Assembly: GCA_964406795.1 (NCBI GenBank)
Contig: CAYOTA010000001.1
Coordinates: 77,081-141,080 of the forward strand
From: an uncultured Gammaproteobacteria bacterium
Lineage (GTDB): Bacteria > Patescibacteriota > Microgenomatia > Levybacterales > GWA1-39-11
Reading direction: 5' to 3'
DNA: 64,000 bases
The notes beneath the pieces were generated by a model. That model did no database searches. It was not told where the DNA came from and was given only the letters and a program-made list of their open reading frames with translations. The position numbers and the translations under genes were made by a program. Shown here one piece after another: positions 31,288 through 53,524 of the stretch (position 1 is the stretch's first letter; each line of letters starts with the position of its first letter).

Positions 31288-31291
31288 AGTT

Positions 31292-34200
31292 TTAGATTAT
31301 CTTCCATCGAATGGTAAATAATGGCTCAAGTTTTGAGTGCTGAGCCAATCGGGCTTCAACTGATTCAAGCAACTTTTCCTTCTTTAATTCTACCTCGTCT
31401 TGGGTCTCAAACAAACGCCTTCTCATCTCATTTCGTTTCTTCTCCCAATCTTTAATTTCTCTTTGGGCTTTCAATTTTTCATCTAAATTAATGATCTTTT
31501 TAGCATTTGTTTTTGCCGTTTTAATGTCAATATCAAACTTCCTTAAATCTAGCTCTATCGCTTTCTTTACATCTTCTGCCCAATTATCTAGTTTATCTAC
31601 CTCGTGATCAAAGAAACTCCCGTTACGCTCGGCGATAACGGTGGAAACAGTCTTAACATACGTATTTTCAAGTTCATCAAGTTTGGTTTTTTTATCACTT
31701 GGAACATTCAATGGAGTAGTGGACTCTGCTGATAACTGAAATATTTTCTTGATAATTTCAGGTTCTATTACATCACCAGAGTCGGTAATTGCAGAGAGAA
31801 TAATATTATCTTCTGCTTCAAATGATTCCACGGTAAAGTTTGAGATCTTCAATACTCCACTTTTTCCTACAAACCGTTTTAGTACAGATATTATGGTTTG
31901 ATTGTCGGAATAATTAAAGACAATTTCTGTTTCTTCAGCCTGTTTTGATTTAATGTCAGACAAAATACGCTGGGCAAGGGAATGTCCTGGGCGGTAAATG
32001 TGAGCATCTTCAATATTCTTACCTATTTTATAAGGGCCAGAATCAATTTCTTCGTTTGGAAATGGGTTCTTTTTTAACATGAATGAATATTCTTGTTCAG
32101 AAAATTCAGCATTATCGCCAAGATAAAATCTTGTGGTATCCCAAAGCCAACGGTTATACATGTCAAGATACATCGTAGTTTCTTTAAGATTTAATTTAAG
32201 TTTTTCGTGTACCTCAGCGTCAAAGTTCTCCAAAAGTGTTTGTCTAGTCTCGGAAAGATTATTTTTGATACTCACATCCATTTCCTCCTGAAGTTTATCG
32301 AACGCAGTATTAATCTCGTCTGTGGTACGACAATCTTGATAGATTGCTGCAATACGCTTTTCAAAGTCCACTCCAGACTCGATATTACCCAAAACTTCGT
32401 CACTAGCTCCGAAAACACCTTTAAACAATTTGAACTTTTGATCTAAAAGGTCATATACGCGACTATCAGCTGCGTTTTTTCGATTCACAAAATTAATTAC
32501 AACCACATCATGCTTCTGTCCGTATCGATGACATCTGCCAATGCGCTGTTCGATACGCTGTGGATTCCACGGCAAATCGTAGTTAATAACTAAGGAACAA
32601 AACTGTAAGTTAACACCCTCCGCTGCTGCCTCGGTGGCGATCATAATATCTGCTTCATCATGGAAGTAGTCGATAAGGGCAGAACGCATGTCCGCAGTTT
32701 TTGACCCAGTAAGTTTATCGGAGTCTTTATTTTTTTCAACCCAATTTTTATAAATTTCTTTTGATTTAGGATCGTTGTTCGAACCGTTAAAGAGGACGAT
32801 TTTATCCTGATAGCCATTATCCGGCAAAAGAGTCTCTGATAAATATTTTTGTGTAATCGTGGATTCAGTAAAAATAATCGCTTTTTGTTTTGCGCCAAGC
32901 TCTTTCGTCATCTCAAAACCTTTTTTAAGTGCTATCAGAAGCGCGTCCCCTTTAGAGTTAGTGAAAATAGCTTTTGCGAGATCTCTAAATCTTTCCAAAT
33001 CGATCTTTTCCTGTTCCATTAGTGGAATATCGTCCTGGGTGTATACCTTAGGTTTTTTACCTTTTTCTGTATCACCATCGTCACCTTCTTCATCATCAAT
33101 CCATTCATCAGATATTTCATCCAATCCCTCAAAATTTTGGGCAATCTCGGTTGTATCAAACTCAACAGGTACAGTTGCCAATGTCTTCTTCGTTTCATCA
33201 ATCAGTAATCCTAGTTTTGCTACGAGATTATTAAGGGTACTTGCTATGGCAAAGGAAGACGAAGCAAGTAACTTTCTTAAAATAAGTGTCATGAGCTGTC
33301 GCTGGCTCGAAGGAAGGGCAAACAATGTCGGCCGTTGTAAATATTCAGACATACTGTCATACAGCTCAATCTCTTGTTTCGTAGGGATGTAGTCCTGAGT
33401 AATTGGTTTACGTTCAGTGTATTTAATATATTCCAATACCTGACGTCTTAATGTCCGAATACAGACCGACTTTAGACGACTTCGTAAATCAGTAAAAAGA
33501 AGTTGTTTTGGATCGACCATTTGCTCATCTTCTGCCAGTCCATTTTCTCTTATAACAATACCTTTACCCGTGTCACCCTCTTTTGCCCACTGGATACCAC
33601 TTATATGTGTAGGAATTTCCTGCTCTCTAGGTGCATGCGAGTAATTTGCTTTGAAACTTTTTAAATCACCAAATACGTGATCATCGATAATGCTTACGAG
33701 ACCATATAGTTCAAGTAATGAATTTTGTAACGGTGTTGCTGTGAGCAGAATCTTGGGCACATCAGACAAAGAGCTTTTTATTTCTCGAGCTATCTTGTTA
33801 CTTGTCTTGTAAACATTACGTAGTCGATGCGCTTCATCGATTACTGCTAAATCCCATTTAGTTTGTTTTACGTATGGAGCTTTTCCTCTAGCAAAATGAT
33901 ATGAGCAAATAATTATCTTATCTTCCTGATCAAAAGGGTTGAGATTTCCGTCTTTAATAGATTGATTAAATGATTTGGCTTCCAATATCACCGAGGGCAA
34001 AAAGAACTTTTCTTGTAATTCCATGTTCCATTGCTTGCGAAGCGCAGCGGGAACAATCAAGAGAATCTTTCTTTTTCGCTCTGCCCATTTTTGAGATAAA
34101 ACAAGACCAGCCTCGATTGTCTTTCCTAGTCCAACTTCATCGGCCAAGATTGCACCCATCGATAAAGGGGATTTAAATGCAAATAATGCGGCTTCAATTT

Positions 34201-34327
34201 GGTGTGGATTAAGGTCAACCTGCGCATTAGAAAGAGTGGAAGATAATTTTTCAAGGCTATCTGAAGAACATCGCTTAGTTAACTCGTAAGCAAAGTATTT
34301 TGCATGATATGGCGTAATTTTTAACAT
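31292..34327 (-). CDS. SNF2-family helicase (1011 aa) co-operonic with Type III mod-res
   Basis: ADEVGLGKT, DEAHRLRN, HelicC block NYDLPWNPQRIEQRIGRCHRYGQ; 5-nt gap to mod. Confidence 0.85.
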   Translation of the reverse strand: MLKITPYHAKYFAYELTKRCSSDSLEKLSSTLSNAQVDLNPHQIEAALFAFKSPLSMGAILADEVGLGKTIEAGLVLSQKWAERKRKILLIVPAALRKQWNMELQEKFFLPSVILEAKSFNQSIKDGNLNPFDQEDKIIICSYHFARGKAPYVKQTKWDLAVIDEAHRLRNVYKTSNKIAREIKSSLSDVPKILLTATPLQNSLLELYGLVSIIDDHVFGDLKSFKANYSHAPREQEIPTHISGIQWAKEGDTGKGIVIRENGLAEDEQMVDPKQLLFTDLRSRLKSVCIRTLRRQVLEYIKYTERKPITQDYIPTKQEIELYDSMSEYLQRPTLFALPSSQRQLMTLILRKLLASSSFAIASTLNNLVAKLGLLIDETKKTLATVPVEFDTTEIAQNFEGLDEISDEWIDDEEGDDGDTEKGKKPKVYTQDDIPLMEQEKIDLERFRDLAKAIFTNSKGDALLIALKKGFEMTKELGAKQKAIIFTESTITQKYLSETLLPDNGYQDKIVLFNGSNNDPKSKEIYKNWVEKNKDSDKLTGSKTADMRSALIDYFHDEADIMIATEAAAEGVNLQFCSLVINYDLPWNPQRIEQRIGRCHRYGQKHDVVVINFVNRKNAADSRVYDLLDQKFKLFKGVFGASDEVLGNIESGVDFEKRIAAIYQDCRTTDEINTAFDKLQEEMDVSIKNNLSETRQTLLENFDAEVHEKLKLNLKETTMYLDMYNRWLWDTTRFYLGDNAEFSEQEYSFMLKKNPFPNEEIDSGPYKIGKNIEDAHIYRPGHSLAQRILSDIKSKQAEETEIVFNYSDNQTIISVLKRFVGKSGVLKISNFTVESFEAEDNIILSAITDSGDVIEPEIIKKIFQLSAESTTPLNVPSDKKTKLDELENTYVKTVSTVIAERNGSFFDHEVDKLDNWAEDVKKAIELDLRKFDIDIKTAKTNAKKIINLDEKLKAQREIKDWEKKRNEMRRRLFETQDEVELKKEKLLESVEARLAQHSKLEPLFTIRWKII

Positions 34328-34328
34328 A

Positions 34329-34499
34329 TTAATTCTTTTTACTTATGAATTTTTCTAAATCGGCTTTTCTATATCGCCTAGTTCGTTTTTCTCCAATTCG
34401 AATAGCTATGAGAATGCCCTTTTTGTCCCATATACGCAAAGTATTTACATGAACCTTTAAGATTTGTGCCGCTTCTTTGAGAGTTAATAGTTCTTCCAT
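34329..34499 (-). CDS. Small excisionase-family (AlpA/MerR-like) HTH protein, 56 aa. Not in the ORF track (below the size cut-off).
   Basis: Manual translation MEELLTLKEAAQILKVHVNTLRIWDKKGILIAIRIGEKRTRRYRKADLEKFISKKN; paralog of 39591..39773; stop 2 nt before the SNF2 start. Confidence 0.55.
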   Translation of the reverse strand: MEELLTLKEAAQILKVHVNTLRIWDKKGILIAIRIGEKRTRRYRKADLEKFISKKN

Positions 34500-34618
34500 A
34501 TTGATTTACCTACCAATTGATAACAATATTATATAGAGTTAGCTAGGCTTTTTCAACCATTTTTATACGAAAAAACACCTCAAAAAGGCCGAAGTCTATG
34601 TAGTATAGGAGGAATTCC

Positions 34619-34831
34619 TTAAACGAAGTCACTCATGGAAGATTTGAGGGCTTTTGCTACTTTTTGGAGTACTTCAAGAGAAGGAGCATGTCTACCTTGT
34701 TCAATATATCCCATATAGGCTCGACTGATGCCTGCTCTTTCAGCTGCTTCCTCCTGGGTAATCCCAATTTGTTTCCTTCGCTTCTGGATTTTCTTCCCTA
34801 TCGCTTTTGGAAGCGTTGCGTTTTTCCTCAT
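34619..34831 (-). CDS. XRE-family HTH transcriptional regulator
   Basis: IGITQEEAAERAGISRAYMGYIEQGRHAPSLEVLQKVAKAL. Confidence 0.75.
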   Translation of the reverse strand: MRKNATLPKAIGKKIQKRRKQIGITQEEAAERAGISRAYMGYIEQGRHAPSLEVLQKVAKALKSSMSDFV

Positions 34832-35359: not shown

Positions 35360-36907
35360 TTAAAACTTCATATCCAGTGTGATTGGTTCAATATCAAATC
35401 CTAAATCATTCATGTGTTGCAAAGACCAAGTTAATCCAGGGTGAGGATCAGGTTCTGGTGTAGATACTTCGCCCGGTTTACGCCTGCTTGATGGACGATC
35501 TGAATCTATGACTTTTGACATAAGTAATGTAAAAGCATCAGCCAAATCATCATATTTTTCCACACCAAAATTTACTAATTGACCTATTAATACTTCTGCA
35601 CCTGTTCTTGGAAAGAATACTTTCCCTTGTTGGATAAGGGGAGAAACCAAGGATAGTCTTGACCTTTTATCCATATTTGGAATTCTCACTTCTTCAGCAA
35701 GTACGTGTTCTACTGTCAGTTGTTGCGCTGCGGCACTTTGGTAACCGACACTTTCTATGTAGGCCACAGGATACGGTCTATAACCTACTTTAAGTTGCTC
35801 CGTTAAGGTTTTTATTGCCTGAATTGTTTGTGGAAAATCTAATTTCTTGTTTAAGATATATGGCAAAATGTAGACTTGAAGATTGTCGCCGTAACCCACT
35901 ACATACGCTGGAACTAAGGCCGTGAAGTTTGCCCATTCCAAAAGTGAAATAGCTAAGTCAACGCCAATCGCTACAAGCCTGGCTGGATAACGATCAGTAC
36001 TAGGAAGAATATCGTAATATTTTATCCAAGAGCCTTTTACAATTCGGTCTTCGTCAGCAATAATTTTTAACAAGAACTCCCTGTACCAAGCTGATTCATC
36101 AGAAATCTCTTTCCTTTTAGCTTCAATGTGTGCCATCGTTGGAAATTTGCCAGGCCAAGCAATATTTCCGTTATCGTCTAACAATGGAAATTCTTTATAA
36201 ATACCGCCTGCCCCTCCTGATTGGATATTTTGCTTAATTCGCATCATCAGCGAATCCTCATGCAAGAGGTTACCTACTGTAATTATTCTGGTGCCACTAT
36301 CTCCAATTGGCTTTATCTCACCAGAAAACCAGTTCCAGAGATTATCTCTGCTTTCTCTGGTCTTAACTGATTCCAGATCTTCAACATCGTCGATGATAAT
36401 AAGATCAGGTCGGTATTGTCGATGTCTGAGTCCTCTGATTCTTTCACTTTGAGATATGGCTGAAATTCTGGCGTCGTGGTGCGGGATTACGAGTGAATTG
36501 GATCGCCATTCGTCAGCTACTTCTGAAAATGGTCCAAAATCTCGTATCAATAACTCATTTGATGTAAGTTCTTGTTTTATGTTTGTAAGGATTTGTTTTG
36601 CCAATCCCTGGGTCAGGCTCACGAGCAGGGTATATTTCTTGCTTGGCTTACCAACCATTGCCCAGATAGGTAGTGCAAGAGTTGCTATTGTTGATTTAGC
36701 CGAACCACGAAAAGCAGTAATGGAAATCTTTTCTAATTCTTCGTTTTGTATGAGATTAAAAATTTCCTTTTGAAAATCAGCAGTCGGACAAGTAATGTAG
36801 TGAGGAAAATAAGTGACAAAAAACCAATAAAAGTTCTCCTGCGTTAATGCTCTTCGAAAATCAGGATTATCCTGAATTTGTTTTATGATTTGTTGTTGAT
36901 CATTCAT
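35360..36907 (-). CDS. Phage terminase large subunit-like protein (ATPase + nuclease)
   Basis: Walker A-like AFRGSAKST, Walker B LIIIDDVED, nuclease motif IGVDLA; 515 aa. Confidence 0.65.
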   Translation of the reverse strand: MNDQQQIIKQIQDNPDFRRALTQENFYWFFVTYFPHYITCPTADFQKEIFNLIQNEELEKISITAFRGSAKSTIATLALPIWAMVGKPSKKYTLLVSLTQGLAKQILTNIKQELTSNELLIRDFGPFSEVADEWRSNSLVIPHHDARISAISQSERIRGLRHRQYRPDLIIIDDVEDLESVKTRESRDNLWNWFSGEIKPIGDSGTRIITVGNLLHEDSLMMRIKQNIQSGGAGGIYKEFPLLDDNGNIAWPGKFPTMAHIEAKRKEISDESAWYREFLLKIIADEDRIVKGSWIKYYDILPSTDRYPARLVAIGVDLAISLLEWANFTALVPAYVVGYGDNLQVYILPYILNKKLDFPQTIQAIKTLTEQLKVGYRPYPVAYIESVGYQSAAAQQLTVEHVLAEEVRIPNMDKRSRLSLVSPLIQQGKVFFPRTGAEVLIGQLVNFGVEKYDDLADAFTLLMSKVIDSDRPSSRRKPGEVSTPEPDPHPGLTWSLQHMNDLGFDIEPITLDMKF

Positions 36908-37334
36908 GACTATTTTCTTTGGACGGAATAAGTGCCGCCATTTCTATTGCTTTATTGAGTAATTCTTTCTGTTCATCTGTCAGGTTAATTTCTTTGTTAT
37001 AGCCAGCGGTAGTCACCTCAACTCTGTTGCGATAGGAATCATGATGTGTCTTAAGCCAGAAAATTATCGAGGTCATGTTTTTATCCTTAATGGCACTAAT
37101 TAGCTGGCTCTCGGCTAGATCATTCACAAGCAAGTTGCCTTCTTGCAAGGCTTCATCTGCCTGTTTTGAAAACTCTTTATCTTCAGCTCTCCATCGATAA
37201 TATGTCGAACGTCCTACATTGGTTTTCTCACAGGCCACCTGAACTATGGGAGTTTTCTTTAGTTGCTCTACCAGTAGATCTTGTTCAACTTTTATACGAT
37301 CTCTAACTGTAATTTGATTATCTTTGTTGTTCAT
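36900..37334 (-). CDS. Phage terminase small subunit-like HTH protein
   Basis: HTH ACEKTNVGRSTYYRWR; ...IIFWLKTHHDSYR typical of TerS; overlaps terL by 8 nt. Confidence 0.5.
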   Translation of the reverse strand: MNNKDNQITVRDRIKVEQDLLVEQLKKTPIVQVACEKTNVGRSTYYRWRAEDKEFSKQADEALQEGNLLVNDLAESQLISAIKDKNMTSIIFWLKTHHDSYRNRVEVTTAGYNKEINLTDEQKELLNKAIEMAALIPSKENSHE

Positions 37335-38074
37335 AGTTTTTTAGCATTTTTACCTGTAACTTTTTCAAAACGATCCATGACGACCTGACAGTATTCTGGA
37401 TCAAGCTCGATTCCCAAACATCTACGCCTAGTTTGCTCACAGGCTATTAACGTAGATCCCGAACCTAGAAAAGGGTCATATACCCAGTCGCCGATTTTTG
37501 AACTATTTAGAATAAGATTGCGAAGTAACCCGACTGGCTTCATCGTTGGGTGCAACGGACTCTTATTTGGTTTAGGGTAAAACAAAACGCTTTTATCCTG
37601 GGATTTCTGAAACCTATGAGTGCCGAACCACCCATAGGCTATGAGCTCATGCATGGGGAGATAGTTAAGTCTTCCGAGTACCGCATGGTTTTTGATCCAG
37701 ATAAGAAGTTGGGCAAACTTGAATCCCTGTTCAAGCAGTCCTTCTCGCATAGAAAAGAGCATTTTGTCGGAATTAAACAAATAATAGCTATTTTTTTCAG
37801 CAAGATGTAGTTTAACTAATTTCAACCATCCACTTGTAAATTCTTTATATTCCTCATCAGTTTGCAAATGGTCATTTAGGATAGTTTTCCTTTTCCCAAC
37901 TTGGTTAAATCCAATTTTGTTTTCAATAAGCGCCACAGCGTACGGCATATCGGTGAGGATCAAAGAAACCTTCCGATCACTAAGAATCTTTTTAACAATT
38001 TCTGGATCCAATGCATCGCCACAAGCGAGATAGTGTGAACCTAGTTCAAAGATGTCATTCTTTTGGATTAACAT
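37331..38074 (-). CDS. DNA N6/N4 methyltransferase
   Basis: ILTDMPY (motif IV), VYDPFLGSGSTLIACE (motif I). Confidence 0.75.
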   Translation of the reverse strand: MLIQKNDIFELGSHYLACGDALDPEIVKKILSDRKVSLILTDMPYAVALIENKIGFNQVGKRKTILNDHLQTDEEYKEFTSGWLKLVKLHLAEKNSYYLFNSDKMLFSMREGLLEQGFKFAQLLIWIKNHAVLGRLNYLPMHELIAYGWFGTHRFQKSQDKSVLFYPKPNKSPLHPTMKPVGLLRNLILNSSKIGDWVYDPFLGSGSTLIACEQTRRRCLGIELDPEYCQVVMDRFEKVTGKNAKKL

Positions 38075-39338
38075 ATTTTGCCTCCTTTCCAGTCAATTGT
38101 TGATACCGAGCGACAATAACATCACAAAAGATCGGATCAATTTCGCAGAGGAACACCCTGCGTTTCAACTGCTCGGCGGCTACAAGTTGACTTCCTGAAC
38201 CTCCAAAGAGGTCAAGAATAATATCTCCTGGCTTGGTACAACGACGGAATGCTTTCTCATATAAAGTAGGGGGCTTTTGTGTAGGATGTTCGTAGTCCTG
38301 TCCATTTACACGCTTCACGAGCCAGATATTAAATAAGTCCATGATGTCATCGGGAAGTCGATTACCTGTTCCAATCTCTTTATTGAGGACTTCGCTGATA
38401 TTGTGAACAGAAGCTGATAGGTAAGGACTGCCGATAGTTCCGTAGACGCAAGGCTCGAAAACCTTATTAAATGCAATTTGGGGAGTCATGTTGGAATTAT
38501 TCTTGATCCAAAGACAAACTCGTTTGTTATTAATTCCTAATTCTGAATACAAACTTTGTAGCATCCCAATGTATGTTTCATCACACCAACAAAAGATGTG
38601 ACAATCGGGGTAAATAAATTGCAAGCCGTTTTGAAGAACAGTTTTTAGAAATTCTCGGTACTCACTGTCAGATTTTTTGTCAGTAGCTCTGCCTCCATAT
38701 TTTCCTTTTGTGCTCACGCCCTTGTTGTAACTAAGTCCGATGTTATAAATCGGATCATAATTAAGCATATGGATTTTATGGTCATCAACTAACTCCTTAA
38801 CCACTTCAGAACTGGTACTATCCCCGCAATACAATCTGTGTTGCCCTAGCAAAATTAGATCACCCAGTTTTGTTCTTGGATTTCTTATCTTTGTCGCCTC
38901 TACCTCAGCATCAAAATCATCATCTTCAACACCAAGCGCATCGTCAAAAATATGGGTGAAATCAAGATCGTCAAAACCAGATTCCAAAAGCAGTTCCATG
39001 TCAAAGCTTTTTAAAAGTTCGTAATCCCAATCGCCAGATACGCGATTCAAAGTCAAATTCAATTTCTTCTCTCTTTCTACATCTTCGATGTCGATAAAAT
39101 TTACAGGAACCGTTTCGTATCCTAAGTCCTTGGCAATTTTTAATCTTAGATGACCTGCGATTACGGTTCCGTAGCGAGATTTATTGCTATTAACTAGGAT
39201 TGGAATAACAAACCCGTTTTCCTTAATACTTTTCGTCGCATCATGTATAGTCTTTTCATACCAAACACGAGGATTGTAACCAGCAGGGTTTAAATCGTTG
39301 ATAGGAACTTCAACTGTTTGAAGAGATATTTGTTTCAT
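38055..39338 (-). CDS. ParB-like nuclease domain fused to a DNA methyltransferase (phage-type)
   Basis: N-terminal ParB/Srx fold (VPINDLNPAGYNPR...IAGHLRL); C-terminal ILDLFGGSGSQLVAAE motif I. Confidence 0.75.
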   Translation of the reverse strand: MKQISLQTVEVPINDLNPAGYNPRVWYEKTIHDATKSIKENGFVIPILVNSNKSRYGTVIAGHLRLKIAKDLGYETVPVNFIDIEDVEREKKLNLTLNRVSGDWDYELLKSFDMELLLESGFDDLDFTHIFDDALGVEDDDFDAEVEATKIRNPRTKLGDLILLGQHRLYCGDSTSSEVVKELVDDHKIHMLNYDPIYNIGLSYNKGVSTKGKYGGRATDKKSDSEYREFLKTVLQNGLQFIYPDCHIFCWCDETYIGMLQSLYSELGINNKRVCLWIKNNSNMTPQIAFNKVFEPCVYGTIGSPYLSASVHNISEVLNKEIGTGNRLPDDIMDLFNIWLVKRVNGQDYEHPTQKPPTLYEKAFRRCTKPGDIILDLFGGSGSQLVAAEQLKRRVFLCEIDPIFCDVIVARYQQLTGKEAKYVNPKE

Positions 39339-39532: not shown

Positions 39533-39561
39533 TTGCTATTTAGTCGATATTTTTGTATGAT
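39533..39561 (+). promoter_or_regulatory. Candidate sigma70-type promoter for the HTH/giant NTPase operon
   Basis: TTGCTA -35, 17-nt spacer, TATGAT -10, about 30 nt upstream of the ATG at 39591. Confidence 0.3.
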
Positions 39562-39590
39562 ATTGTTAACAAATGGTAAGTTAGGAAGAC

Positions 39591-39773
39591 ATGAACAAAA
39601 CAGAAAAAATTCCAGAGCTGCTAACCCTAAAGGAAACATGCGACCTTCTTAAGGTTCATGCCAATACGCTTAGACAGTGGGATAAAAAGGGTATCTTAGT
39701 TGCGGTACGTTTCGGCGCGCGAAAAGATCGAAAATATAACAAAGAAGATGTCTTAAGGTTACTAAAAGGGTAA
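39591..39773 (+). CDS. Excisionase-family (AlpA-like) HTH protein, 60 aa
   Basis: LLTLKETCDLLKVHANTLRQWDKKGILVAVRFG; 3-nt gap to the next gene. Confidence 0.65.
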   Translation: MNKTEKIPELLTLKETCDLLKVHANTLRQWDKKGILVAVRFGARKDRKYNKEDVLRLLKG

Positions 39774-39776
39774 ATT

Positions 39777-42700
39777 ATGGAAGATATTAATTGGAGTGCT
39801 TTTAAGGCGAAATTCGATGGAAAAGAACAAAAGTCGTTCGAGAGGCTCAGTTACCTCCTTTTTTGTGACGAGTTTAACAAACCATTAGGGTTGTTTCGAT
39901 ATAAAAACCAGGCTGGCATTGAAACAGAACCAGTTGAAGTTGACGGGAAAAATATTGGCTTCCAGGCAAAATTTTATGAAACATCTCTTGCTAGTAATAA
40001 AGCTGAAATAATAGACGCACTTAAGAAAGCAAAAGATAAAAACTCCGAACTTAATAAAGTTATTTTCTATACAAACCAGGAGTTTGCGGAAAGTAGCAAG
40101 AAAAACAAAAAAGAACCTGACTATAAAGTAGAGATTGAAAATTATGCCAAATCATTAGTTTTAGAAATTGAATGGAGAACTAAGAGTTATTTTGAGTCAT
40201 CTCATGTAAGTATTAAAAATAAAAACATTGCCCATCATTATTTTAGCCTTGAAAAAAGCACACTTGACTTAGTTACTGAATTAACTCAACACTCGGACTC
40301 AATCATCTCTCCAATACACTCATTAATTGAATTTAATAACCAAGAAATTAAAATACAACGTGCTGAGACTCTTGCATTTCTCATTAAAAAACTTAAGGAT
40401 TTTCCATTAGTTATTTTGAGTGGCGAAGGCGGATCAGGAAAAACAGCGATTATAAAAGACTTTTATGATGCGAAAAAGAATGAATCACCCATTTTTATAT
40501 TTAAGGCTACAGAGTTTAATATATCGAATATCAATTTGCTGTTTAAAAACTACGGGGAATTTACTCTAGCTAGCTTTAATGAAGAATTATCTGGATATTC
40601 TGAAAAATTTATTGTAATTGATTCTGCTGAAAAACTGTCAGACATAGAGGATACTCAAGCTTTTCAAGAATTTTTAACTACAACACTCAGCAATAAATGG
40701 AAAATAATCTTTACAACACGATATAACTACCTTGATGACTTGAAATTTCAACTTACCAACATTTATGGAAGAAACTTTCATTTAATTAATATTGAAAATC
40801 TTGATCAGAAAGCCCTTAGTGATTTAGCATCTAAGTATGGTTTTAAATTGCCTCAAAACGACAAGTTTATAGATCTGATAAAAAATCCATTTTATCTTAA
40901 TGAATATTTGCAAAATTACACGACTTTAGGTGAATCAACAAACCCTACTGAATTTAAAGAACTCATATGGAACAAGCAAATATTGGGAAATTTCCAAAGA
41001 AATAACACGCATATAAAAAGGGAGGAAGTATTTCTAAAAATCGCAGAAAAAAGGGCAAATGACACTTCATTCTTTGTAAATACAGCTGAATTCGACAGTG
41101 AAATTCTTCACAAGCTTGAATCAGATGAGTTAATCAAACATGATCCTCGCACGGGTGGGTATTTTATTACGCATGACATATACGAAGAGTGGGCGTTAAA
41201 CAAAATAATTGATAGAGAGTTTTATAAAAATGAAGACAAACTCGATTTCCTAAAATCCATCGGCATTTCATTACCAGTTCGTAGAGCCTTTAGAATTTGG
41301 CTTTCAGAAAAACTTGCTGTTAAACCAAAGGAAATAGAGTCTTTTATCGATACCGTAATAAAAACTAAAGAAATCGAACCTTTTTGGAAAGATGAATCAA
41401 TTATATCTGTCCTATTGTCAGACTATGCTCAAACATTTTTTGAATTGTATGAGCAGAAAATATTAGCCAATGATTACGAGCTATTGGTCAGAATTATTTT
41501 TCTCCTGAGAATCGCGTGTAAAGAAATTGATGAGACACTACTACATCTCTTGGGGCTACAGAAGACTGATGGTATTGCTTTAAAAACTATTTTCACAAAA
41601 CCAAAAGGTGCAGGATGGAATTGCGTTATAAGTCTAATATTTAAGCATAAAGAGGAACTTGGCTTGACCAAGATGTTTATCATTACGTCTTTGTTGGCTG
41701 ACTGGAATAGCAAGTTTAAGAGGGGTAATACCACAAAAAATGCGAGTCTAATTGCTCTCTATTTATATGAACAATTTATGGATCAAGGTGGCTATTGGTC
41801 TGGATCAAGAGATGACAAGAAGGAAGAAATAGTAAATGTTATTTTGCAAGGTTCCGCTGAGATTAAAGAAGAGTTAAAAAAAGTTTTTGATACTGTAATA
41901 GCTGAAAAACAAACAAGCCACAGAGATAAATACTACCCATTAGTTGAGGTAATGTTAGGATCAATCTCTAGTGCCGCGGAAATTACAATGAACTTACCAG
42001 AATATGTTATTAAAATAGCTGACTTATATTGGTATAGACCGCCTGTTAAAGAGCTTAATCCATACGAACATCATTCAATTGGCGTTGAACAACACTTCGG
42101 CTTAAGTGAGATGCATGACTTTAACTACTTCCCCCCTAGTGCGCTTCAAACACCAACATTTCTACTTTTAAGATACCATCCTCAACTTGCAGTAAATTTC
42201 ATATTGTCATTTACAAATAAGACAGCTGAATGTTATTCAAAATCAGAATTTGGAGACGAGGTTGAAGAGGTGGAAATTTTTTTCGATGAATCATCATCCA
42301 TAAAACAACTAATTAGTAATCGTTTATGGAATATGTACAGGGGTACTCAGGTTTCCACCAGTCTTTTAGAGTCAATACATATGGCACTTGAGAAATGGCT
42401 ACTCGAATTCGCCAAAATTGTATCTGGTGAGGTTTTAGAGAGTTGGTGCCTATATCTACTCAAGAATTCGAAGTCTGCATCGATTACAGCAGTAGTGACA
42501 AGTGTCGTTCTAGCTAACCCAGATAAATTAAGCAAAGTCGCCATTATTTTATTTAGGTCTAGAAAATTGTTTTTTTATGACACAGGTAGATATAGCTTAG
42601 ATCAAACTGCCAGTTTTCAGTATTCAATAGGGAGCGGTTTGGGTCATGGAGATATGTATAGAAACGAAAGAATTAAAACGTGTGAAGATCCACATAGGAA

Positions 42701-44513
42701 ACAATCATTAGAATATTTGGCAGTAAATTATCAATTTTTTAGATCTGATAAAGTTGATGAAAAAACAGCCGAAAACAGACTAAAAGAAGTTTGGGATGTT
42801 ATCGATAAACATTATTCCGAACTTCCTGATGAACAAAGTGAGACTTCAGAAGACAAGACGTGGAGGCTGTATCTTGCGAGAATGGATAAAAGGAAAATGA
42901 ATCCTAAGCTTGAAAGAAAAGATGGACAAGTACTAATAAAGTTTAATCCTAAGATTGAACCGAAGTTGAGGAAGTACAGTGAAGATTCTTTGAAGAAAGG
43001 TAATGAGGCCTCAAAATATGTCCAACTTAAACTTTGGTCTAGCTACAGATTTGAATACAAGAAAGAAGAATACGAAAAATATGAAAAGTATCAAGATAAT
43101 CCAACGCAGGTTATATCCGATGTAAAAAAGATTGTTAGTAAGATAAAAAGAAATAAAGATGATAACTTCTCACTGCTGAATAGAACAATTCCAGTATTTT
43201 CATGCGCTGTTTTAGTGCGAGACTATTTTGATCAATTAAGCCCTAAGGATAAAGAGTATTGTAAAAAAATCTTACTAGAGTTCGCTTTTCTTCCACTTAA
43301 TCCTCAATACCGCTTTCAAATTTCTGATGGAGTTGAACCAGCAATTGCAAGCCTTCCCTTATTAATAAAAAACTTTCCCTCTGATAGAACAGAGACAAAA
43401 GCTTTATTACTGATGCTTTTAGTTAGTTCGTGGGGACATATTGAAGTATTTGTTATCAAAGCGATATTACATCAACTATGGAAACTGAGCTTTAAAGATG
43501 CACAGTCCTTATTATTTGGCTATATTTTATTAAAACCTAAATACGATCTTCTTAGAGAAGAATTAAGAAAAGAAAGTTATAAGAATTATCATTATGAGGA
43601 TTTAGAACCTAAGTTAATGTTAGCGTTCACTCAAAAGTATGAGAAGGAAAGCGAATCTGTTGTTGTGGATGCGATTTCGTACAAGGACTTAGAACCTTTA
43701 GCAGATTTAGAAAACGATGTCTTGAATACAATATTTGAACTAATTCCTTTAAGAACTTCAGATGAAGAACACAAAAAAATAATTGGTCAATTATTTCCGA
43801 TTTTTTCTAAAAAAATGTTCAAAGAGCGTGATGGAGATAGCTATCAATTAAGGCAAAGGTTTTTTGAGAAGATGTCTTATTTTCTACTCACATCTAGTAA
43901 AGATGAGCTGCATACGCACTTAATCCCGTTCATTGAAAACTTCACCCTCTCGAGGGAAACGGCAGACTTTTTTCAAGCACTAGTATTTGCTGAAGATTCA
44001 CTAAATGAATATGAGAACTTTTGGACTATATGGAACAATTACTACGATAAACTAAAGGATGCTTGTCAGGCAGAAAGACCCAATTTTTATCTTAAAGAAA
44101 TTATTCGTAACTATCTACTTGCTGGGTCATTTTGGAAGGAAGAAGCGAAAGAGTGGCATTCTTTAAAAGATCGTGAAAAAAGCTTTTTTAGCAATGTTGC
44201 TAATGAAATGGGTAAGTTCCCGACGACCCTTTATTCCATTTCTAAACTTTTAAACGAAATTGGAAGCAAATTCTTAGATGATAGTATTTACTGGATAGCA
44301 ACTATCATAGATAAAAATCCTGAATTAACCTCTGCTGATTTGGATACCAATACCATTTATTATCTTGAAAATTTAATTAGAAAACACATTCTGGTAGACA
44401 GACAAAGTATTAAAAGAAACACTAAAGAAAAAAAGGCTGTTATTTCCATTCTTAACTTCCTTGTTGAGCATGGTTCTCCAACGGGTTATTTGCTAAGAGA
44501 GGATATTCTTTAA
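39777..44513 (+). CDS. Giant Mrr-like restriction-endonuclease domain + STAND/NACHT NTPase + ~1200-aa C-terminal helical region (Avs-like antiviral NTPase candidate)
   Basis: N-terminus FERLSYLL...AGIETEPVEVDGKNIGFQAKFY...VIFYTNQEF (Mrr_cat-like D...QxK); Walker A ILSGEGGSGKTAII; Walker B FIVIDSAEKL; NACHT TTR motif KIIFTTRYNY. Confidence 0.6.
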   Translation: MEDINWSAFKAKFDGKEQKSFERLSYLLFCDEFNKPLGLFRYKNQAGIETEPVEVDGKNIGFQAKFYETSLASNKAEIIDALKKAKDKNSELNKVIFYTNQEFAESSKKNKKEPDYKVEIENYAKSLVLEIEWRTKSYFESSHVSIKNKNIAHHYFSLEKSTLDLVTELTQHSDSIISPIHSLIEFNNQEIKIQRAETLAFLIKKLKDFPLVILSGEGGSGKTAIIKDFYDAKKNESPIFIFKATEFNISNINLLFKNYGEFTLASFNEELSGYSEKFIVIDSAEKLSDIEDTQAFQEFLTTTLSNKWKIIFTTRYNYLDDLKFQLTNIYGRNFHLINIENLDQKALSDLASKYGFKLPQNDKFIDLIKNPFYLNEYLQNYTTLGESTNPTEFKELIWNKQILGNFQRNNTHIKREEVFLKIAEKRANDTSFFVNTAEFDSEILHKLESDELIKHDPRTGGYFITHDIYEEWALNKIIDREFYKNEDKLDFLKSIGISLPVRRAFRIWLSEKLAVKPKEIESFIDTVIKTKEIEPFWKDESIISVLLSDYAQTFFELYEQKILANDYELLVRIIFLLRIACKEIDETLLHLLGLQKTDGIALKTIFTKPKGAGWNCVISLIFKHKEELGLTKMFIITSLLADWNSKFKRGNTTKNASLIALYLYEQFMDQGGYWSGSRDDKKEEIVNVILQGSAEIKEELKKVFDTVIAEKQTSHRDKYYPLVEVMLGSISSAAEITMNLPEYVIKIADLYWYRPPVKELNPYEHHSIGVEQHFGLSEMHDFNYFPPSALQTPTFLLLRYHPQLAVNFILSFTNKTAECYSKSEFGDEVEEVEIFFDESSSIKQLISNRLWNMYRGTQVSTSLLESIHMALEKWLLEFAKIVSGEVLESWCLYLLKNSKSASITAVVTSVVLANPDKLSKVAIILFRSRKLFFYDTGRYSLDQTASFQYSIGSGLGHGDMYRNERIKTCEDPHRKQSLEYLAVNYQFFRSDKVDEKTAENRLKEVWDVIDKHYSELPDEQSETSEDKTWRLYLARMDKRKMNPKLERKDGQVLIKFNPKIEPKLRKYSEDSLKKGNEASKYVQLKLWSSYRFEYKKEEYEKYEKYQDNPTQVISDVKKIVSKIKRNKDDNFSLLNRTIPVFSCAVLVRDYFDQLSPKDKEYCKKILLEFAFLPLNPQYRFQISDGVEPAIASLPLLIKNFPSDRTETKALLLMLLVSSWGHIEVFVIKAILHQLWKLSFKDAQSLLFGYILLKPKYDLLREELRKESYKNYHYEDLEPKLMLAFTQKYEKESESVVVDAISYKDLEPLADLENDVLNTIFELIPLRTSDEEHKKIIGQLFPIFSKKMFKERDGDSYQLRQRFFEKMSYFLLTSSKDELHTHLIPFIENFTLSRETADFFQALVFAEDSLNEYENFWTIWNNYYDKLKDACQAERPNFYLKEIIRNYLLAGSFWKEEAKEWHSLKDREKSFFSNVANEMGKFPTTLYSISKLLNEIGSKFLDDSIYWIATIIDKNPELTSADLDTNTIYYLENLIRKHILVDRQSIKRNTKEKKAVISILNFLVEHGSPTGYLLREDIL

Positions 44514-45817
44514 AAAAGCGATAAATTTTCATTTATCTTTATTTGATTTAGACCTGCAAGCAGCAGTGATATTAAATAATATCTTCTGTCCGGTTTTGCA
44601 TAAAGAATCATGTTTTGAAGGTACATTTTGGTTGTAGTGTCGTCTATTTCGCTAAATTTCATTGGATAAATTGAGAGTTTGATTGTGCTTTCGCTCATGC
44701 GGGCGTGAATATCCCATCGCATCCGTTCAAATCTGACTATCTCGTCCTGAATCTGCTCTGGAAAATTGATTTTTGAAACATCGACGGAATCAATGAGCTT
44801 AGTTATATCCCGGAAGACATCTTCTTCTAAGACATATTCAACCTTACATTTTTTATCTTTTTGACGACTACATCTGTAGTAAGTATGAAAATTCGATCTG
44901 CCGTTTTTAAGTTTCCGAATTTTACTCTGGCGGTGCACTGGCGACCCACAACGAGCGCATTTTAGAAATCTGGCTATCGAATACTTATCTCCACGGGCAT
45001 ATGTATTGCGGAATGGTCGGAGTTTTGCTTGAACCTGATCATATCGTTCTAGGGTGACGGTAGGTTCGTAAATTCCTTGATATTCAATACCCTTAATCAC
45101 AAATCTGCCAGCATAGAATTTGTTTCGGAGTATTCCATAAATAACACTCTGAGGAATGTGTTTTCCTTTGGCACTTCTTAAAGAAGTATTCTTATTGATC
45201 CATGCAATTACTTTTTTTACGGGTATTCCGTCCGCTACCTTCTGGAATAACTTTGAAATGGGTTCTCCTCGCTCTGGATCGATGGAGATTTTACGTACTC
45301 CACCAATCGTTTCACTGATATAGCCAATTGGCACTGGCCCCGGCCAATATCCGAGCTGGCACTGATTTCGTATCCCGCGCCGAATGTTTATGCTTCGATT
45401 ATCGTTCTCTAGCTTAGCTTGACTGCCAAGGATCATTAAGAGGAACTTCTCATTAGGATTGTCGGTAAAGGTCTGTGAGTACGTCACGATCATCTTAAGC
45501 TTCCCCTCGTCCATCAGATCGACCAAGATACCAAGGTCTCCAGCGTTCCTTGATAATCTGTCTGGCGACCATGTAATAATGCCGGAGTAAATACCTTGCT
45601 CGATTTCTTTAAGTAGTTTGTTAAAAGTTTCTCGTTGTCCGCATTTTTTAGCAGTGTGACTTTCCCGATAGATTTCGCCAATTTCAAGATTATCTCGTTG
45701 TGCTATCTTTTGCATTTCGTTTACCTGCGAGTCGATAGAGATTGCCTGTCTTTCGTCCGACTCCGATGATTTTCTGGCATAGAGGCAAAACCGTATGTGC
45801 GAATCTTGTTTTTCCAT
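44510..45817 (-). CDS. Large serine recombinase (more divergent paralog)
   Basis: YARKSSESDERQAISIDSQ catalytic region; zinc ribbon CARCG...YYRC. Confidence 0.9.
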   Translation of the reverse strand: MEKQDSHIRFCLYARKSSESDERQAISIDSQVNEMQKIAQRDNLEIGEIYRESHTAKKCGQRETFNKLLKEIEQGIYSGIITWSPDRLSRNAGDLGILVDLMDEGKLKMIVTYSQTFTDNPNEKFLLMILGSQAKLENDNRSINIRRGIRNQCQLGYWPGPVPIGYISETIGGVRKISIDPERGEPISKLFQKVADGIPVKKVIAWINKNTSLRSAKGKHIPQSVIYGILRNKFYAGRFVIKGIEYQGIYEPTVTLERYDQVQAKLRPFRNTYARGDKYSIARFLKCARCGSPVHRQSKIRKLKNGRSNFHTYYRCSRQKDKKCKVEYVLEEDVFRDITKLIDSVDVSKINFPEQIQDEIVRFERMRWDIHARMSESTIKLSIYPMKFSEIDDTTTKMYLQNMILYAKPDRRYYLISLLLAGLNQIKINENLSLF

Positions 45818-46004
45818 TCAACTCAACACATACCGGGAATATTTGAGGAATGCAAGCTAATTTTAGATAAATATATCAAAGTACATCATACCTAAATTGT
45901 GAGACACCCTTTTTTATAGTGTCCCATTTGTCTCATTTTTGATAGAATTAGCCTCGAAAGCTAATTGGGCTATAGGGATAAAAAGGGTCTAGACCGTACC
46001 CCAC

Positions 46005-46176
46005 AGCAAAGACGGGCACCCCTAGGTGACCGTATTCCCTATTTAGCTTGAAGGGGCTTGCTAAAAGCCCCTTCAAGACGGGAAACATTCGGACCGACAA
46101 AACACCCCCAAGTTCTCAATATTAGGCTAGGGTTCACATATGTCCTACTTAACCGGAGGAATTAGGATTCGAACAG
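46005..46176. repeat. Right copy of the ~170-bp degenerate direct repeat (att-like)
   Basis: See 19682..19856; contains perfect hairpin GAAGGGGC-TTGCTAAAA-GCCCCTTC. Confidence 0.55.
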
Positions 46177-46192: not shown

Positions 46193-47521
46193 TCAAATAA
46201 GCGGTACGGAGGTTACAGTTTCGTTGTGGATATAAAGCTGTCGGTTTAATATGTTCGTTACCTCCCGTTTTTCCTGCACGGTCCCGTTGCGAAATATGTA
46301 GTTTGCGTAATCCATAAAATGCACTGATTTGTTTTCGGGATTAATATCCTGCGCCCATAGAATTTCATCTCTCATTTTCTTATACGCTTCCATACTTTCC
46401 TTAATAAATTCCTTAAAAGTAAAGATCTGAGGATGTGCCATGTACATAAAGTTTAAGTATCGTAATATTTGTTTTATGAGCTTTTCTTCGGTCAGGTATG
46501 GCTCAGGACAGCCATACTTCTTTTGCCTTGTGCAATGATAATAAATATGATAAACAGAGGGTCTTGCTTTCCTCTTTCTGTATCTGTCTTCGCCGATAAC
46601 CAAGGATCCACAGCTTGCACATTTGAATAAATCTTTGAAGGTAAATGTTTTGCTTCCCCATTTTGCTTTTTTGAATGGAACCGCAAGTTGTTTCTGGACT
46701 TGATCAAATAGTTCTTTAGTAATTAATGGTTGATGAGAGCCCTTATACCAGTTTCCGCTACCGATTGGGTATTCAAATTCGCCATAGTAAAAGGGATTCT
46801 TTAGCATGAGGTAAATCTGACTTAACGTTACTCTCTTTCCTGCTCGTGTTGTAAGACAAGTATCTAGCCATTTCTTAAGCGTCCTTCCACTGTCACCATT
46901 CCTTGCGACACGTTCAAACATTTCAGTAACTATGTGACCTCTGTCGGGATCTACCACAATATCTTTTATTCCTGCCATAGCTCGGTTATAGTAACCAATT
47001 GGTGGCATGCCTGGTCTCCATCCCATGTTACACTTTGCTCGAATACCTCGCTTAACGTTAATTCCTTTTTGATCGTTCTCCAACTTTGCTTGAGAACACA
47101 AGATCATTAAGAGAAACTTTTCATTTGGATTATTAGAAAAACTTTGACTAAATGTTTTTATTTGCTGAAGTTTACCTTGGTCCATCAGATCTACAACCAT
47201 TCCTAAGTCTCCTGCATTACGGCTTAAACGATCAGGAGCCCAAGAAAGAATACCTGTAAACATTCCATTTCTAATATCCTCAAGTAACTTTCTAAAAACT
47301 GGTCGTTGTCCTGATTCTTTAGCCGAATGACTTTCTCGACGTATCTCTTTAATAAAGAATCCTTCTCTTTCTGCAAGTTCGCTCATTTCTTTAACTTGTG
47401 AGTCAATAGACATTGCTTGTCGCTCATCATCTTCGCTGGATTTCCTTGCATACAAACAATACTCAATAATATGGATTTGTATAGATGGAGTAACTCTTAA
47501 AGGCTCGCTGTATTTATCCAT
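46193..47521 (-). CDS. Large serine recombinase
   Basis: Same architecture and high identity to the CDS at 20632..21969. Confidence 0.9.
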   Translation of the reverse strand: MDKYSEPLRVTPSIQIHIIEYCLYARKSSEDDERQAMSIDSQVKEMSELAEREGFFIKEIRRESHSAKESGQRPVFRKLLEDIRNGMFTGILSWAPDRLSRNAGDLGMVVDLMDQGKLQQIKTFSQSFSNNPNEKFLLMILCSQAKLENDQKGINVKRGIRAKCNMGWRPGMPPIGYYNRAMAGIKDIVVDPDRGHIVTEMFERVARNGDSGRTLKKWLDTCLTTRAGKRVTLSQIYLMLKNPFYYGEFEYPIGSGNWYKGSHQPLITKELFDQVQKQLAVPFKKAKWGSKTFTFKDLFKCASCGSLVIGEDRYRKRKARPSVYHIYYHCTRQKKYGCPEPYLTEEKLIKQILRYLNFMYMAHPQIFTFKEFIKESMEAYKKMRDEILWAQDINPENKSVHFMDYANYIFRNGTVQEKREVTNILNRQLYIHNETVTSVPLI

Positions 47522-52156: not shown

Positions 52157-53524
52157 TTAGGAATATACCCGCACAAAGAGGATTGCGGAAATAAAACCAG
52201 CTGCAAGCGTTATTAGTAAGCAGACTGCCCATACAATCGAGACTGGATGCGACAGGAGCTTTTGCGTGGCTATTTTTTCTCCCCAATACATCGGCGCGAT
52301 AATCCGTATATACACTCCCAATGATATAACGCTATTTAAGATGCCAATAATTGCCAGGAGAATTGCTTTGTTCTCAATTGCAACGCCAAAAAGCAGTATC
52401 TTGCCGATAAATCCAAAAAGCGGAGGTATACCGACAAGTGAAAGAAGAAATATTGTCATAGAGAGTGCCAACCAGGGATGTCTTTTCATAAGTCCTGAAA
52501 AATTAGAAAGCGCGGATCCTATTTGCAAGGTCACAGCAAACGCGCCGATGTTCATGGCAGCGTAAGCTGCTGCAAAAACTAATAATGCCGGAAGCGCCAG
52601 ACTGCTTTTGCCAAGGAACGCAATAGCAAAAAGAAAATAGCCGGATTGGGCAATGGAAGAGTATGCCAAAAGCCGTTTGACATTATCCTGAAACAGGGCA
52701 GCAACAGTGCCGTAGGTCATGGTTGCAATGGCAAGTAAGCTTATGAGTAAAGTCCAGTCAACTCCACCCGAAAGATTTTTGGCAATTTGAGCAAGTGCAA
52801 ACAGCCCGCCTATTTTGGGAATAATAGAAAGATAAGCCGCGATAGAAACAGGAGCGCCTTCATACGCATCTGGTGTCCAGAAATGAAATGGTACGAGTGA
52901 TGCTTTATATCCCAGTCCCGCGATAACACCTATTGTCCCGATCAACGCAGCAAGCGGCATACCAGAGGCTTTCGGAAGGTCCAAAAGAAGCGTTGATCCG
53001 GTTGCTCCGTACCAGTATGTGAGTCCAAATAACATCAGCGCCGTACTGATGGAGCCGAAAATAAAATACTTCATACCGGCTTCAGTTGCATTAATACTGC
53101 CAGGATACGTCACCAGCGCATAAGAGCCAAGACTTGTTAAGAGCATTCCTAAAATAAGAAACATCATATCCCCTGAGGCTGATAAAACAATTGCGCCAAG
53201 TGTTGTAAAAAGAAACAGCGTATAGATAGATCCTACTCGTACAGTCTTGCCTAACTCATCACGAGTCAATAATACGATGAGCGCAGTTGCGGGCAAAAGT
53301 ATCACTTTTGCCCAGACACTAAGCGCATCAATTCTGAAAGTCTGGCTAAATACTGTTGTTTCAGTATTCAGTAGTGAGATGGTCAGAAAAAAGGATAGGA
53401 ATAGTCCAGCTATACTGATAAGAAAAGTAAGTTGCTTGCGGTGAAACATCTCCGAAACCAGAGCAAACACTGCTGTCAGCAAAAGCGCAATATCCGGAAG
53501 TAAAAGTTGTAAATCCCGTTCCAT
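52157..53524 (-). CDS. Complex-I-like antiporter subunit (NuoN/Mrp-type)
   Basis: Polytopic; conserved NuoN-type core. Confidence 0.75.
   Translation of the reverse strand: MERDLQLLLPDIALLLTAVFALVSEMFHRKQLTFLISIAGLFLSFFLTISLLNTETTVFSQTFRIDALSVWAKVILLPATALIVLLTRDELGKTVRVGSIYTLFLFTTLGAIVLSASGDMMFLILGMLLTSLGSYALVTYPGSINATEAGMKYFIFGSISTALMLFGLTYWYGATGSTLLLDLPKASGMPLAALIGTIGVIAGLGYKASLVPFHFWTPDAYEGAPVSIAAYLSIIPKIGGLFALAQIAKNLSGGVDWTLLISLLAIATMTYGTVAALFQDNVKRLLAYSSIAQSGYFLFAIAFLGKSSLALPALLVFAAAYAAMNIGAFAVTLQIGSALSNFSGLMKRHPWLALSMTIFLLSLVGIPPLFGFIGKILLFGVAIENKAILLAIIGILNSVISLGVYIRIIAPMYWGEKIATQKLLSHPVSIVWAVCLLITLAAGFISAILFVRVYS

Follow-up and report, generated by a model that had tools for sequence, protein, structure and literature searches.

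In a 64,000-nt stretch of DNA from an uncultured bacterium (contig CAYOTA010000001.1, positions 77,081 to 141,080; this whole stretch is called the window hereafter), a 60-aa helix-turn-helix (HTH) gene, HTH1, lies directly upstream of a 1578-aa gene which, judged by its homology, is almost certainly a canonical, single-protein and full-length Avs4 (AVAST type 4) gene [Table 1]. From our comparison of both genes with their relatives elsewhere, HTH1 is very probably a generic leader of a slot for exchangeable cargo and not specific to Avs4. The stop codon of HTH1 (TAA, 39771-39773) is followed in the sequence by ATT and then by the ATG of Avs4 (39777), leaving a gap of 3 nt; a purine-rich, Shine-Dalgarno-like run (AAAGGG) lies within the final codons of HTH1, and a scan of the intergenic stretch detected no terminator-like site. 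The 3-nt spacing implies that the two genes are co-transcribed, and translational coupling is possible. The GC content is 0.32-0.35 over the Avs4 gene as against 0.42-0.46 in the chromosomal flank on the right. A first-pass annotation, made from the letters alone, had placed this pair inside a tRNA-linked island, next to restriction-modification (RM) and nuclease-helicase modules and divergent from a terminase operon. Each part of this picture was recovered in our analysis, i.e., the two adjacent open reading frames (ORFs), a tRNA-Gln gene, neighbours encoding type III RM, SNF2/DrmD-like and UvrD-like helicases and a Cas4-like nuclease, and a divergent operon of ParB-methyltransferase (MTase), TerS-like and TerL genes.

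The 1578-aa protein scored 2019.6 bits with the NCBIfam equivalog NF041815.1 (AVAST type 4 anti-phage nuclease Avs4; cutoff 1500), the match spanning residues 5-1578 of 1578 and profile positions 1-1579, and 1979.2 bits over residues 1-1578 with the PADLOC Avs4 model PDLC02169. The solved EcAvs4 (PDB 8DGF chain A) aligned at 1329 bits (residues 4-1578 of the query with 4-1587 of the chain) and was collinear to the last residue. Single modules gave the same result, residues 1-190 alone matching residues 4-122 of 8DGF_A (E=3.4e-45) and residues 191-420 alone matching residues 209-417 of EcAvs4 (E=8.5e-48). The NTPase motifs comprise Walker A GEGGSGKT (216-223, with K222), Walker B VIDSAE (280-285, with D282 and E285) and TTR (313-315, with R315); in an alignment of 19 Avs4 proteins, E49, Q63, K65, G216, G219, G221, K222, D282, E285, and R315 were invariant. 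All motifs quoted in the first-pass annotation (FERL, GIETEP, FQAKFY, IFYTNQEF, GEGGSGKT, VIDSAE, TTR) occur in the translation, and its layout of effector, STAND NTPase and sensor, together with the assignment to Avs, was right but understated, as the protein scores above the NF041815 cutoff and is collinear with EcAvs4. The window protein shares with EcAvs4 and NF041815 a similar length (EcAvs4 has 1587 aa), the order of nuclease, STAND NTPase and sensor, and, with EcAvs4, the nuclease residues E49, Q63, and K65 and the Walker residues. It is nevertheless a diverged copy from an uncultured bacterium: a protein-database search returned 1,875 relatives at E<=1e-20, several already named Avs4 by NCBI, and the nearest relative is 57% identical when the twin copy described below is set aside. 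Unlike other Avs4 genes, it is co-transcribed with an upstream winged HTH leader, which other loci lack, and is the cargo of a TerL/TerS/ParB-MTase island with serine recombinases.

Avs4 is a portal-sensing protein (PMC13581612) and a non-specific DNA endonuclease activated by phage (PMC11564622), and it works as a homotetramer which requires ATP for oligomerisation but not its hydrolysis (PMC12236752). Because Avs4 senses the portal, the docking of the sensor on the co-located TerL, as proposed in the first-pass annotation, is misdirected; the island has no recognisable portal gene. TerL is reportedly the trigger of Avs1-3, according to the primary Avs paper. The Avs4 effector is described as 'Mrr-like', and a Q63/K65 mutant has reportedly been made.

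HTH1 matches the Pfam families HTH_17 (37.5 bits, cutoff 27) and MerR_1 (37.5 bits, cutoff 21.6). The database holds ∼500 relatives, and the matches listed are 70-88% identical over all 60 residues, which is far above the conservation of Avs4 (57% for its closest non-twin). The AlphaFold2 (AF2) model of HTH1 has a predicted local distance difference test (pLDDT) score of 85.7 and the b-a-a-b-b-a topology of a winged helix. Among solved folds the BldC-DNA complexes 6AMK and 6AMA came out best (TM 0.74-0.87, root-mean-square deviation 1.3-1.5 Å, ∼32% identity), followed by the Xis of mycobacteriophage Pukovnik (4J2N), and a sequence profile ranked the solved structures alike, again with BldC best (E=1.5e-5). 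HTH1 stayed under the curated NCBIfam cutoffs of BldC (NF033787, 25.6 vs. 77), excisionase (TIGR01764, 26.6 vs. 28.8), and MAD1 (NF047737, 19.2 vs. 80). An alignment of the HTH family searched against the IMG/VR viral contigs returned no relatives. In one relative (L091; loci are referred to by L numbers), a 293-aa protein encoded at 9092..9973 on the reverse strand, at the distal end of a Shedu-containing slot, carries an N-terminal HTH 46-49% identical to the leader family which is fused to an uncharacterised C-terminal region.

We then compared the contexts of ten HTH relatives with that of the window, and the downstream same-strand genes fell into 11 distinct sets. In the window, HTH1 precedes Avs4 (set 1), and a paralog, HTH2, precedes an operon for an SNF2/DrmD-like helicase, type III RM Mod and Res, a UvrD/GajB-like helicase, a Cas4-like nuclease and a protease-like protein (set 2). 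Elsewhere the family is followed by Avs4, an Mrr_cat protein and two unknowns (set 3, L096); four small or unknown genes including an HNH-like gene (set 4, L087); a ∼1170-aa HEAT-like protein, a 152-aa protein and others (set 5, L088, L118-122, and L130); HNH, PDC-M14A-like and Shedu SduA proteins (set 6, L091); a weak LmuA-like match, a 1225-aa protein and a PD-T7-5-like protein (set 7, L093-95); a complete type I RM between rpsP and tyrS (set 8, L098-107); five genes including a PDC-S39-like one (set 9, L108-117); a type III-like MTase and a ResIII helicase in a primase/serine-recombinase element (set 10, L124-129); and PDC-S06 (862 bits), an Stk2-like kinase and a SEC-C protein (set 11, L133). 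The gap between the HTH gene and the cargo is 1-10 nt in all sets but two, one having a 17-nt overlap and the other a 199-nt gap. Matches to defence models (Avs4, type I, type III, SduA, PDC-M14A, PD-T7-5, PDC-S39, PDC-S06, Stk2-like, and Mrr_cat) were found in 9 of the 11 cargo sets, and in 8 of the 11 the HTH gene is divergent from a backbone of ParB_N-MTase, TerS-like and TerL genes, the exceptions being the window paralog, L098, and L124. In essence, the HTH family heads a variable cargo slot, usually beside a ParB-MTase/TerS/TerL backbone in serine-recombinase islands.

In the sampled relatives with the TerL backbone, a conserved gene for a 213-aa membrane protein (73-94% identical), absent from the window, marks where the slot ends on the side away from the HTH. 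A gene of about this size had also been considered as a common partner of the HTH; it was set aside, being confined to TerL-backbone loci and unrelated to the 213-aa gene of L124 and the 222-aa gene of L098. Cargo genes also shuffle singly, e.g., a 203-aa HNH-like gene stands first in L091 and second in L087 with 87% identity. A pair of genes for a ∼1166-1172-aa and a 152-aa protein recurs behind the leader (L088 6205..10178; L118 8192..12153; L119, L120, and L122; L130 8191..12146). The larger protein has weak HEAT-repeat matches only and the pair has no PADLOC or significant Pfam match, and its position behind the HTH suggests a candidate new defence system.

The converse comparison started from Avs4. 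Searches of genomes, metagenomes and viral contigs yielded 86 Avs4 loci (3 loci from a scan of species-representative genomes with a single Avs4 protein, 80 from an alignment-based metagenome scan, and 3 distant loci, none with the HTH, from viral contigs), of which 76 were informative, their sequence reaching 300 nt or more ahead of Avs4. A relative of HTH1 was found upstream of Avs4 by phmmer in none of the 76, and a hidden Markov model (HMM) of the family, run with filters off, likewise found none (best E 1.6), the same HMM scoring 130 bits on its own family. By eye, an unrelated small excisionase-like ORF precedes Avs4 in L019 and L062 only (about 2/76). The upstream neighbours of the 76 loci are heterogeneous, which fits a single-gene system without an obligatory partner. 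The first-pass annotation was thus correct that a small HTH leader is foreign to canonical Avs loci, as none of the 76 has a relative of HTH1 upstream. The specific coupling of HTH and Avs which it implied finds no support: operons of many unrelated kinds are led by the HTH family, and when the window is compared with L096, the other element having the pair, the HTH is more diverged than Avs4. As a separate observation, at least 10 metagenomic loci out of 76 (L005, L007, L008, L010, L014, L015, L016, L020, L022, and L056) have a same-strand ORF with an NPPY N6-adenine methyltransferase motif directly upstream, its end being under 60 nt from the start of Avs4, so that the adjacency of such an ORF to Avs4 is recurrent.

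The twin element, L096, has the same backbone, the HTH and an Avs4. Between the window and L096, the proteins are identical to 60% (TerL), 64% (TerS-like), 30% (ParB-MTase), 79% (HTH), and 93% (Avs4). In a sliding profile of DNA identity, the two are unalignable upstream of the promoter, the HTH gene reaches 68-69%, and from the start codon of Avs4 identity rises abruptly to 81-97% (about 90%), holds through the stop codon and is lost at 44514. This step at the HTH/Avs4 junction indicates that Avs4 was exchanged more recently than the leader ahead of it, with the breakpoint at the junction. The greater divergence of the HTH in protein (79%) and DNA (68-69%) than that of Avs4 (93% and ∼90%) indicates that HTH and Avs4 did not evolve together as one unit. 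Judged by this DNA comparison, Avs4 is swappable cargo behind a resident HTH leader. A single BLAST block against L096 had suggested operator, HTH and Avs4 as one co-travelling cassette, an idea that was dropped because the sliding profile shows the step. On the right, the stop-codon ends of Avs4 and of a convergent recombinase gene overlap (44510..44513), and similarity to L096 ends at this overlap, so the recombinase abuts the cargo without a spacer. Positions 2..393 of the window are ∼79% identical in DNA to 17186..17576 of L096, within the 3' portion of the cargo gene (556 aa) which follows Avs4 there; the window may be directly preceded by a further related element.

The second leader of the window, HTH2, is 54% identical to HTH1 and 50-58% identical to members of the HTH family. 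The block 22921..34624 (11.7 kb), HTH2 with its promoter included, has no counterpart in L096, where the junction lies at 5717|5736 and 18 nt separate the flanking DUF4352 gene from the XRE gene. The absence of this block from L096 indicates that the island in the window holds two independently acquired defence operons, each led by a member of the HTH family.

Upstream of HTH1, a consensus scan matched a sigma-70-like promoter (TTGCTA-17-TATGAT) for the HTH-Avs4 operon, and the -10-like hexamer keeps its position throughout the upstream regions of the HTH family, of which 14 are unique. Among the 49 HTH genes examined, which share these 14 sequences, every one has two ∼10-bp tandem direct repeats directly after this hexamer, and the repeats end 10-15 nt ahead of the ATG of the HTH gene. 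A degenerate pattern of the repeats has two exact matches in the 64-kb window, both at HTH leaders, against 0.06 expected by chance. A third match with 3 mismatches, ATTGTAAACAATGGGTAAGA at 8882..8901 on the forward strand, falls at the end of an ORF (8438..8899) with no HTH gene nearby and is probably due to chance.

Table 1. Features of the window and operator-like repeats of related loci; coordinates are those of the window.
Feature	Position	Strand	Basis or remark
HTH1 leader gene, 60 aa, ATG	39591..39773	+	ORF list
Avs4 gene, 1578 aa, ATG	39777..44513	+	ORF list
Avs4 N-terminal nuclease effector module (putative), residues 1-190	39777..40346	+	EcAvs4 homology; E49, Q63, K65 invariant
Avs4 STAND NTPase module, residues 191-420	40347..41036	+	EcAvs4 homology
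Avs4 C-terminal sensor region (putative), about 1150 aa	41037..44513	+	EcAvs4 collinearity; full-length NCBIfam and PADLOC Avs4 models
Predicted sigma-70-like promoter of HTH-Avs4 operon	39533..39561	+	Consensus scan match only
Operator-like element of HTH1, two ∼10-bp tandem direct repeats, ATTGTTAACA / AATGGTAAGT	39562..39581	+	Between -10 box and HTH1 start codon
Operator-like repeats of HTH2, ATTGTTATCA / ATTGGTAGGT	34508..34527	-	Preceded by TATAAT
Operator-like repeats of L087 and L108, AATGGTAACA / AATAGTAAGT			
Operator-like repeats of L098, ATATTAAGCA / ATATTAAGTA			
HTH2, paralogous 56-aa leader	34329..34499	-	ORF found by mapping HTH relatives onto the window; stop 1 nt before start of SNF2 gene
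Second defence operon, headed by HTH2	22948..34327	-	PADLOC: DrmD 687, MTase_III 642, REase_III 615 bits
Type III RM Mod	29689..31287		PADLOC
Type III RM Res	27051..29729		PADLOC
Backbone operon, divergent from HTH1	35360..39338	-	Pfam and PHROG
ParB_N-MTase	38055..39338	-	Backbone operon
MTase	37331..38074	-	Backbone operon
TerS-like	36900..37334	-	Backbone operon
TerL-like	35360..36907	-	phrog_38 at 3e-78
Large serine recombinase, convergent with Avs4	44510..45817	-	Pfam Resolvase, Recombinase, Zn_ribbon_recom; right boundary of Avs4 cargo
Large serine recombinase at tRNA-Gln end	20632..21969	-	phrog_95 (integrase) 7e-60; 82% identical to L096 counterpart
Third serine recombinase	46193..47521		
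tRNA-Gln	19614..19687		
∼65-nt sequence directly 3' of tRNA-Gln	19688..19755		
Second copy of the ∼65-nt sequence	46004..46070		∼75% identity
Complex I genes of the chromosomal flank	52157..58465	-	Three Proton_antipo_M proteins, NADHdh

Taken together, these results are likely best explained by an Avs4 which acts like EcAvs4 and an HTH which serves as an autoregulating leader of variable defence cargo. By homology to EcAvs4, the C-terminal domain of Avs4 would bind the portal protein of a phage, the STAND NTPase would then mediate a tetramerisation that depends on ATP, and the N-terminal nuclease activated in this way would cut DNA non-specifically so that the infection is aborted. The leader would bind head-to-tail to the two ∼10-bp repeats just past the -10 box, overlapping the probable transcription start, and would thereby autoregulate, most likely repress, the leader-cargo transcript. 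We lean slightly toward autorepression through the tandem repeats as the actual mode of this control. Such autoregulation would keep a potentially toxic nuclease at a safe level whatever cargo follows, a logic like that of the controller proteins of RM systems, and the near-identical repeats at HTH1 and HTH2 would permit joint control of both operons.

Several points weigh against this explanation. The trigger and mechanism of Avs4 are transferred from EcAvs4. The labels 'Mrr-type' and 'NACHT-type' of the first-pass annotation hold through EcAvs4 homology only: Pfam Mrr_cat has no match in the 1578-aa protein, and the nSTAND3 (16.3 vs. 27.2), NACHT, NB-ARC, and AAA_16 matches are all under their gathering scores. 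The AF2 model of Avs4 residues 1-200 has a pLDDT of 54.7, too low for use; with this poor model and no Mrr_cat match, the nuclease assignment rests on the homology to EcAvs4. On the side of the leader, HTH1 resembles the BldC, excisionase and MAD1 families and, by its profile scores, belongs to none of them. Instead of an operator, the conserved 20-nt stretch could be a 5' untranslated region or translation signal, and the HTH, being divergent from another operon in most contexts, could regulate that operon instead or additionally. The sample of contexts is non-random, comprising HTH relatives at least 70% identical on long contigs, and 2 of the 11 sets have no match to a defence model.

Other roles for the leader have to be weighed against autoregulation. 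The matches of HTH1 to the PHROG excisionase families phrog_66 (8e-8), phrog_2907, and phrog_7735, its score just short of the TIGR01764 'excise' cutoff, and the rank of Pukovnik Xis as its second-best structural match would all suit an excisionase, or recombination directionality factor (RDF), for the serine recombinases of the island, with its place before Avs4 being incidental; three such recombinases lie in the window, and recombinases are also present in L096, L108, and L125. This role is quite unlikely in our estimate, as the family also leads the type I RM operon that L098-L107 carry between rpsP and tyrS, where no recombinase lies within 8 kb, the two paralogs of the window are each attached to a defence operon and not to a recombinase gene, and the conserved repeats sit in the promoter of the HTH gene itself and not at the island ends. 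Excisionase-type winged HTH RDFs, moreover, classically pair with tyrosine, not serine, recombinases. A dedicated accessory of Avs4 (e.g., an inhibitor or antitoxin, a co-sensor or a DNA-targeting subunit), making the pair a two-component variant of Avs4, is very improbable: the HTH is missing from all 76 other Avs4 loci, nine or more other, unrelated cargo sets follow members of its family, and between the window and L096 it is far more diverged than Avs4, which together outweigh the 3-nt spacing and the recurrence of the pair in one other element, L096.

A further alternative sees the main function of the HTH gene and its promoter in providing a conserved homology anchor for cargo swaps by homologous recombination, with regulation being secondary. 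The HTH is 70-88% conserved amid unalignable or variable DNA on either side, the step in identity falls exactly at the HTH/cargo junction, the 213-aa membrane-protein gene marks the far slot end in TerL-backbone relatives, and single cargo genes move between slots, as does the HNH-like gene of L091 and L087. However, the conservation is at the protein level, with invariant residues of the DNA-contact type and a confident fold model, which is indicative of selection on a working protein, and an HTH gene only 68-69% identical in DNA between the twins is a poor substrate for homologous recombination. As the main role of the leader we regard an anchor as unlikely; it is nonetheless compatible with an autoregulating leader and not exclusive of it.

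The backbone operon is syntenic with those of the relatives L087-L096, L108, L118-123, L130, and L133, from which the TerL of the window is 45-73% and the TerS-like protein 57-69% identical, and the names attached to relatives of the backbone are Ca. Beckwithbacteria, Ca. Shapirobacteria or Patescibacteria. More than 2,700 proteins make up the TerL family, the named ones of which come from bacteria of the candidate phyla radiation (CPR), and the best TerL of a sequenced phage is ∼27% identical; the source contig (150,903 bp) has a second copy, P0285 (60% identical), at another place. Scans with Pfam, PHROG and PADLOC found no portal, capsid or tail genes among the island genes. The window contains three large serine recombinases, and the island is bounded by serine recombinases. 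A ∼65-nt sequence directly 3' of the tRNA-Gln gene recurs between the two right-hand recombinase genes, and it is also found beside the tRNA in L096 (∼596..668); it may mark the island ends, or there may be a tandem, partly degraded second element which starts with the third recombinase. An Rfam scan of the window returned tRNA only. The chromosomal flank encodes complex I subunits, which are atypical for CPR/Patescibacteria.

BldC of Streptomyces (6AMA/6AMK), the founding member of the single-domain MerR-like winged HTH regulators, resembles HTH1 in size (68 vs. 60 aa) and in being a lone winged HTH domain without coiled coil or effector domain. It binds tandem direct repeats head-to-tail as cooperative multimers (PMC5859096). 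The tandem ∼10-bp direct repeats in the HTH promoters parallel these direct-repeat sites, and the predicted DNA binding of the HTH is probably similar in mode. BldC differs as a chromosomal developmental regulator with a large regulon, whereas the HTH family heads mobile defence operons, and HTH1 lies far under the BldC subfamily cutoff, so that the likeness is at the level of the fold. MAD1 of the MADS system is likewise a small HTH_17-type protein and the first gene in a defence locus, and HTH1 matches the PADLOC mad1 model at E=1.5e-9; unlike in MADS, there are no other MADS genes in the window and no mad2-mad8 set beside HTH1, and in other slots only mad2-like and mad6-like domains occur, as generic MTase and kinase matches.

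In genomic logic the leader recalls the C proteins of RM systems and BrxR/CapW, which are small DNA-binding genes at the 5' end of potentially self-toxic defence operons, co-transcribed with them and having operators in their own promoters; the association with many defence systems rather than one is also shared. C proteins are XRE-type HTH proteins and BrxR/CapW are WYL-domain proteins, whereas the HTH leader is a 60-aa winged HTH of MerR/excisionase type with no sensor domain, and its putative operator consists of direct, not inverted, repeats. The hotspots of P2/P4 phages and the cargo regions of phage-inducible chromosomal islands (PICIs) have a conserved backbone with a slot where unrelated defence systems replace one another, and the HTH slot is likewise flanked by conserved genes and holds interchangeable defence systems. 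It differs from these in that its backbone lacks nearby genes for a portal, a capsid or other structural proteins and is bounded by large serine recombinases, and in that a dedicated leader gene with its own putative operator heads the slot. In the literature on HTH_17/excisionase-like defence leaders and on terminase-bearing islands of Patescibacteria we found no description of this arrangement, the coverage being incomplete and the result an absence of evidence only.

The Avs4 of the window is a routine member of a well-characterised, solved family, such proteins are already named by automated annotation, and it adds little except the presence of Avs4 in this uncultured lineage. The leader and the slot are the more useful result, since an apparent Avs-specific partner turns out to be a portable, conserved leader of defence operons with a repeat element of its own. 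Very tentatively, the HTH and its tandem repeats could be the universal head of a slot for exchangeable defence cassettes in a large, undescribed family of TerS/TerL/ParB-MTase islands, bounded by serine recombinases and possibly phage satellites of CPR-like bacteria, a generalisation which we hold to be doubtful. If it were true, genes of no known function behind the leader, such as the ∼1170-aa and 152-aa pair, would be new antiphage systems marked by guilt by association, and the leader would be a cargo-independent regulatory module which makes any toxic defence gene safe to acquire. A cargo-independent autoregulator of this kind would explain how self-toxic immune genes are exchanged safely among mobile islands, and the HTH together with its operator would provide a sequence handle for mining defence systems in the metagenomes of poorly studied bacteria.

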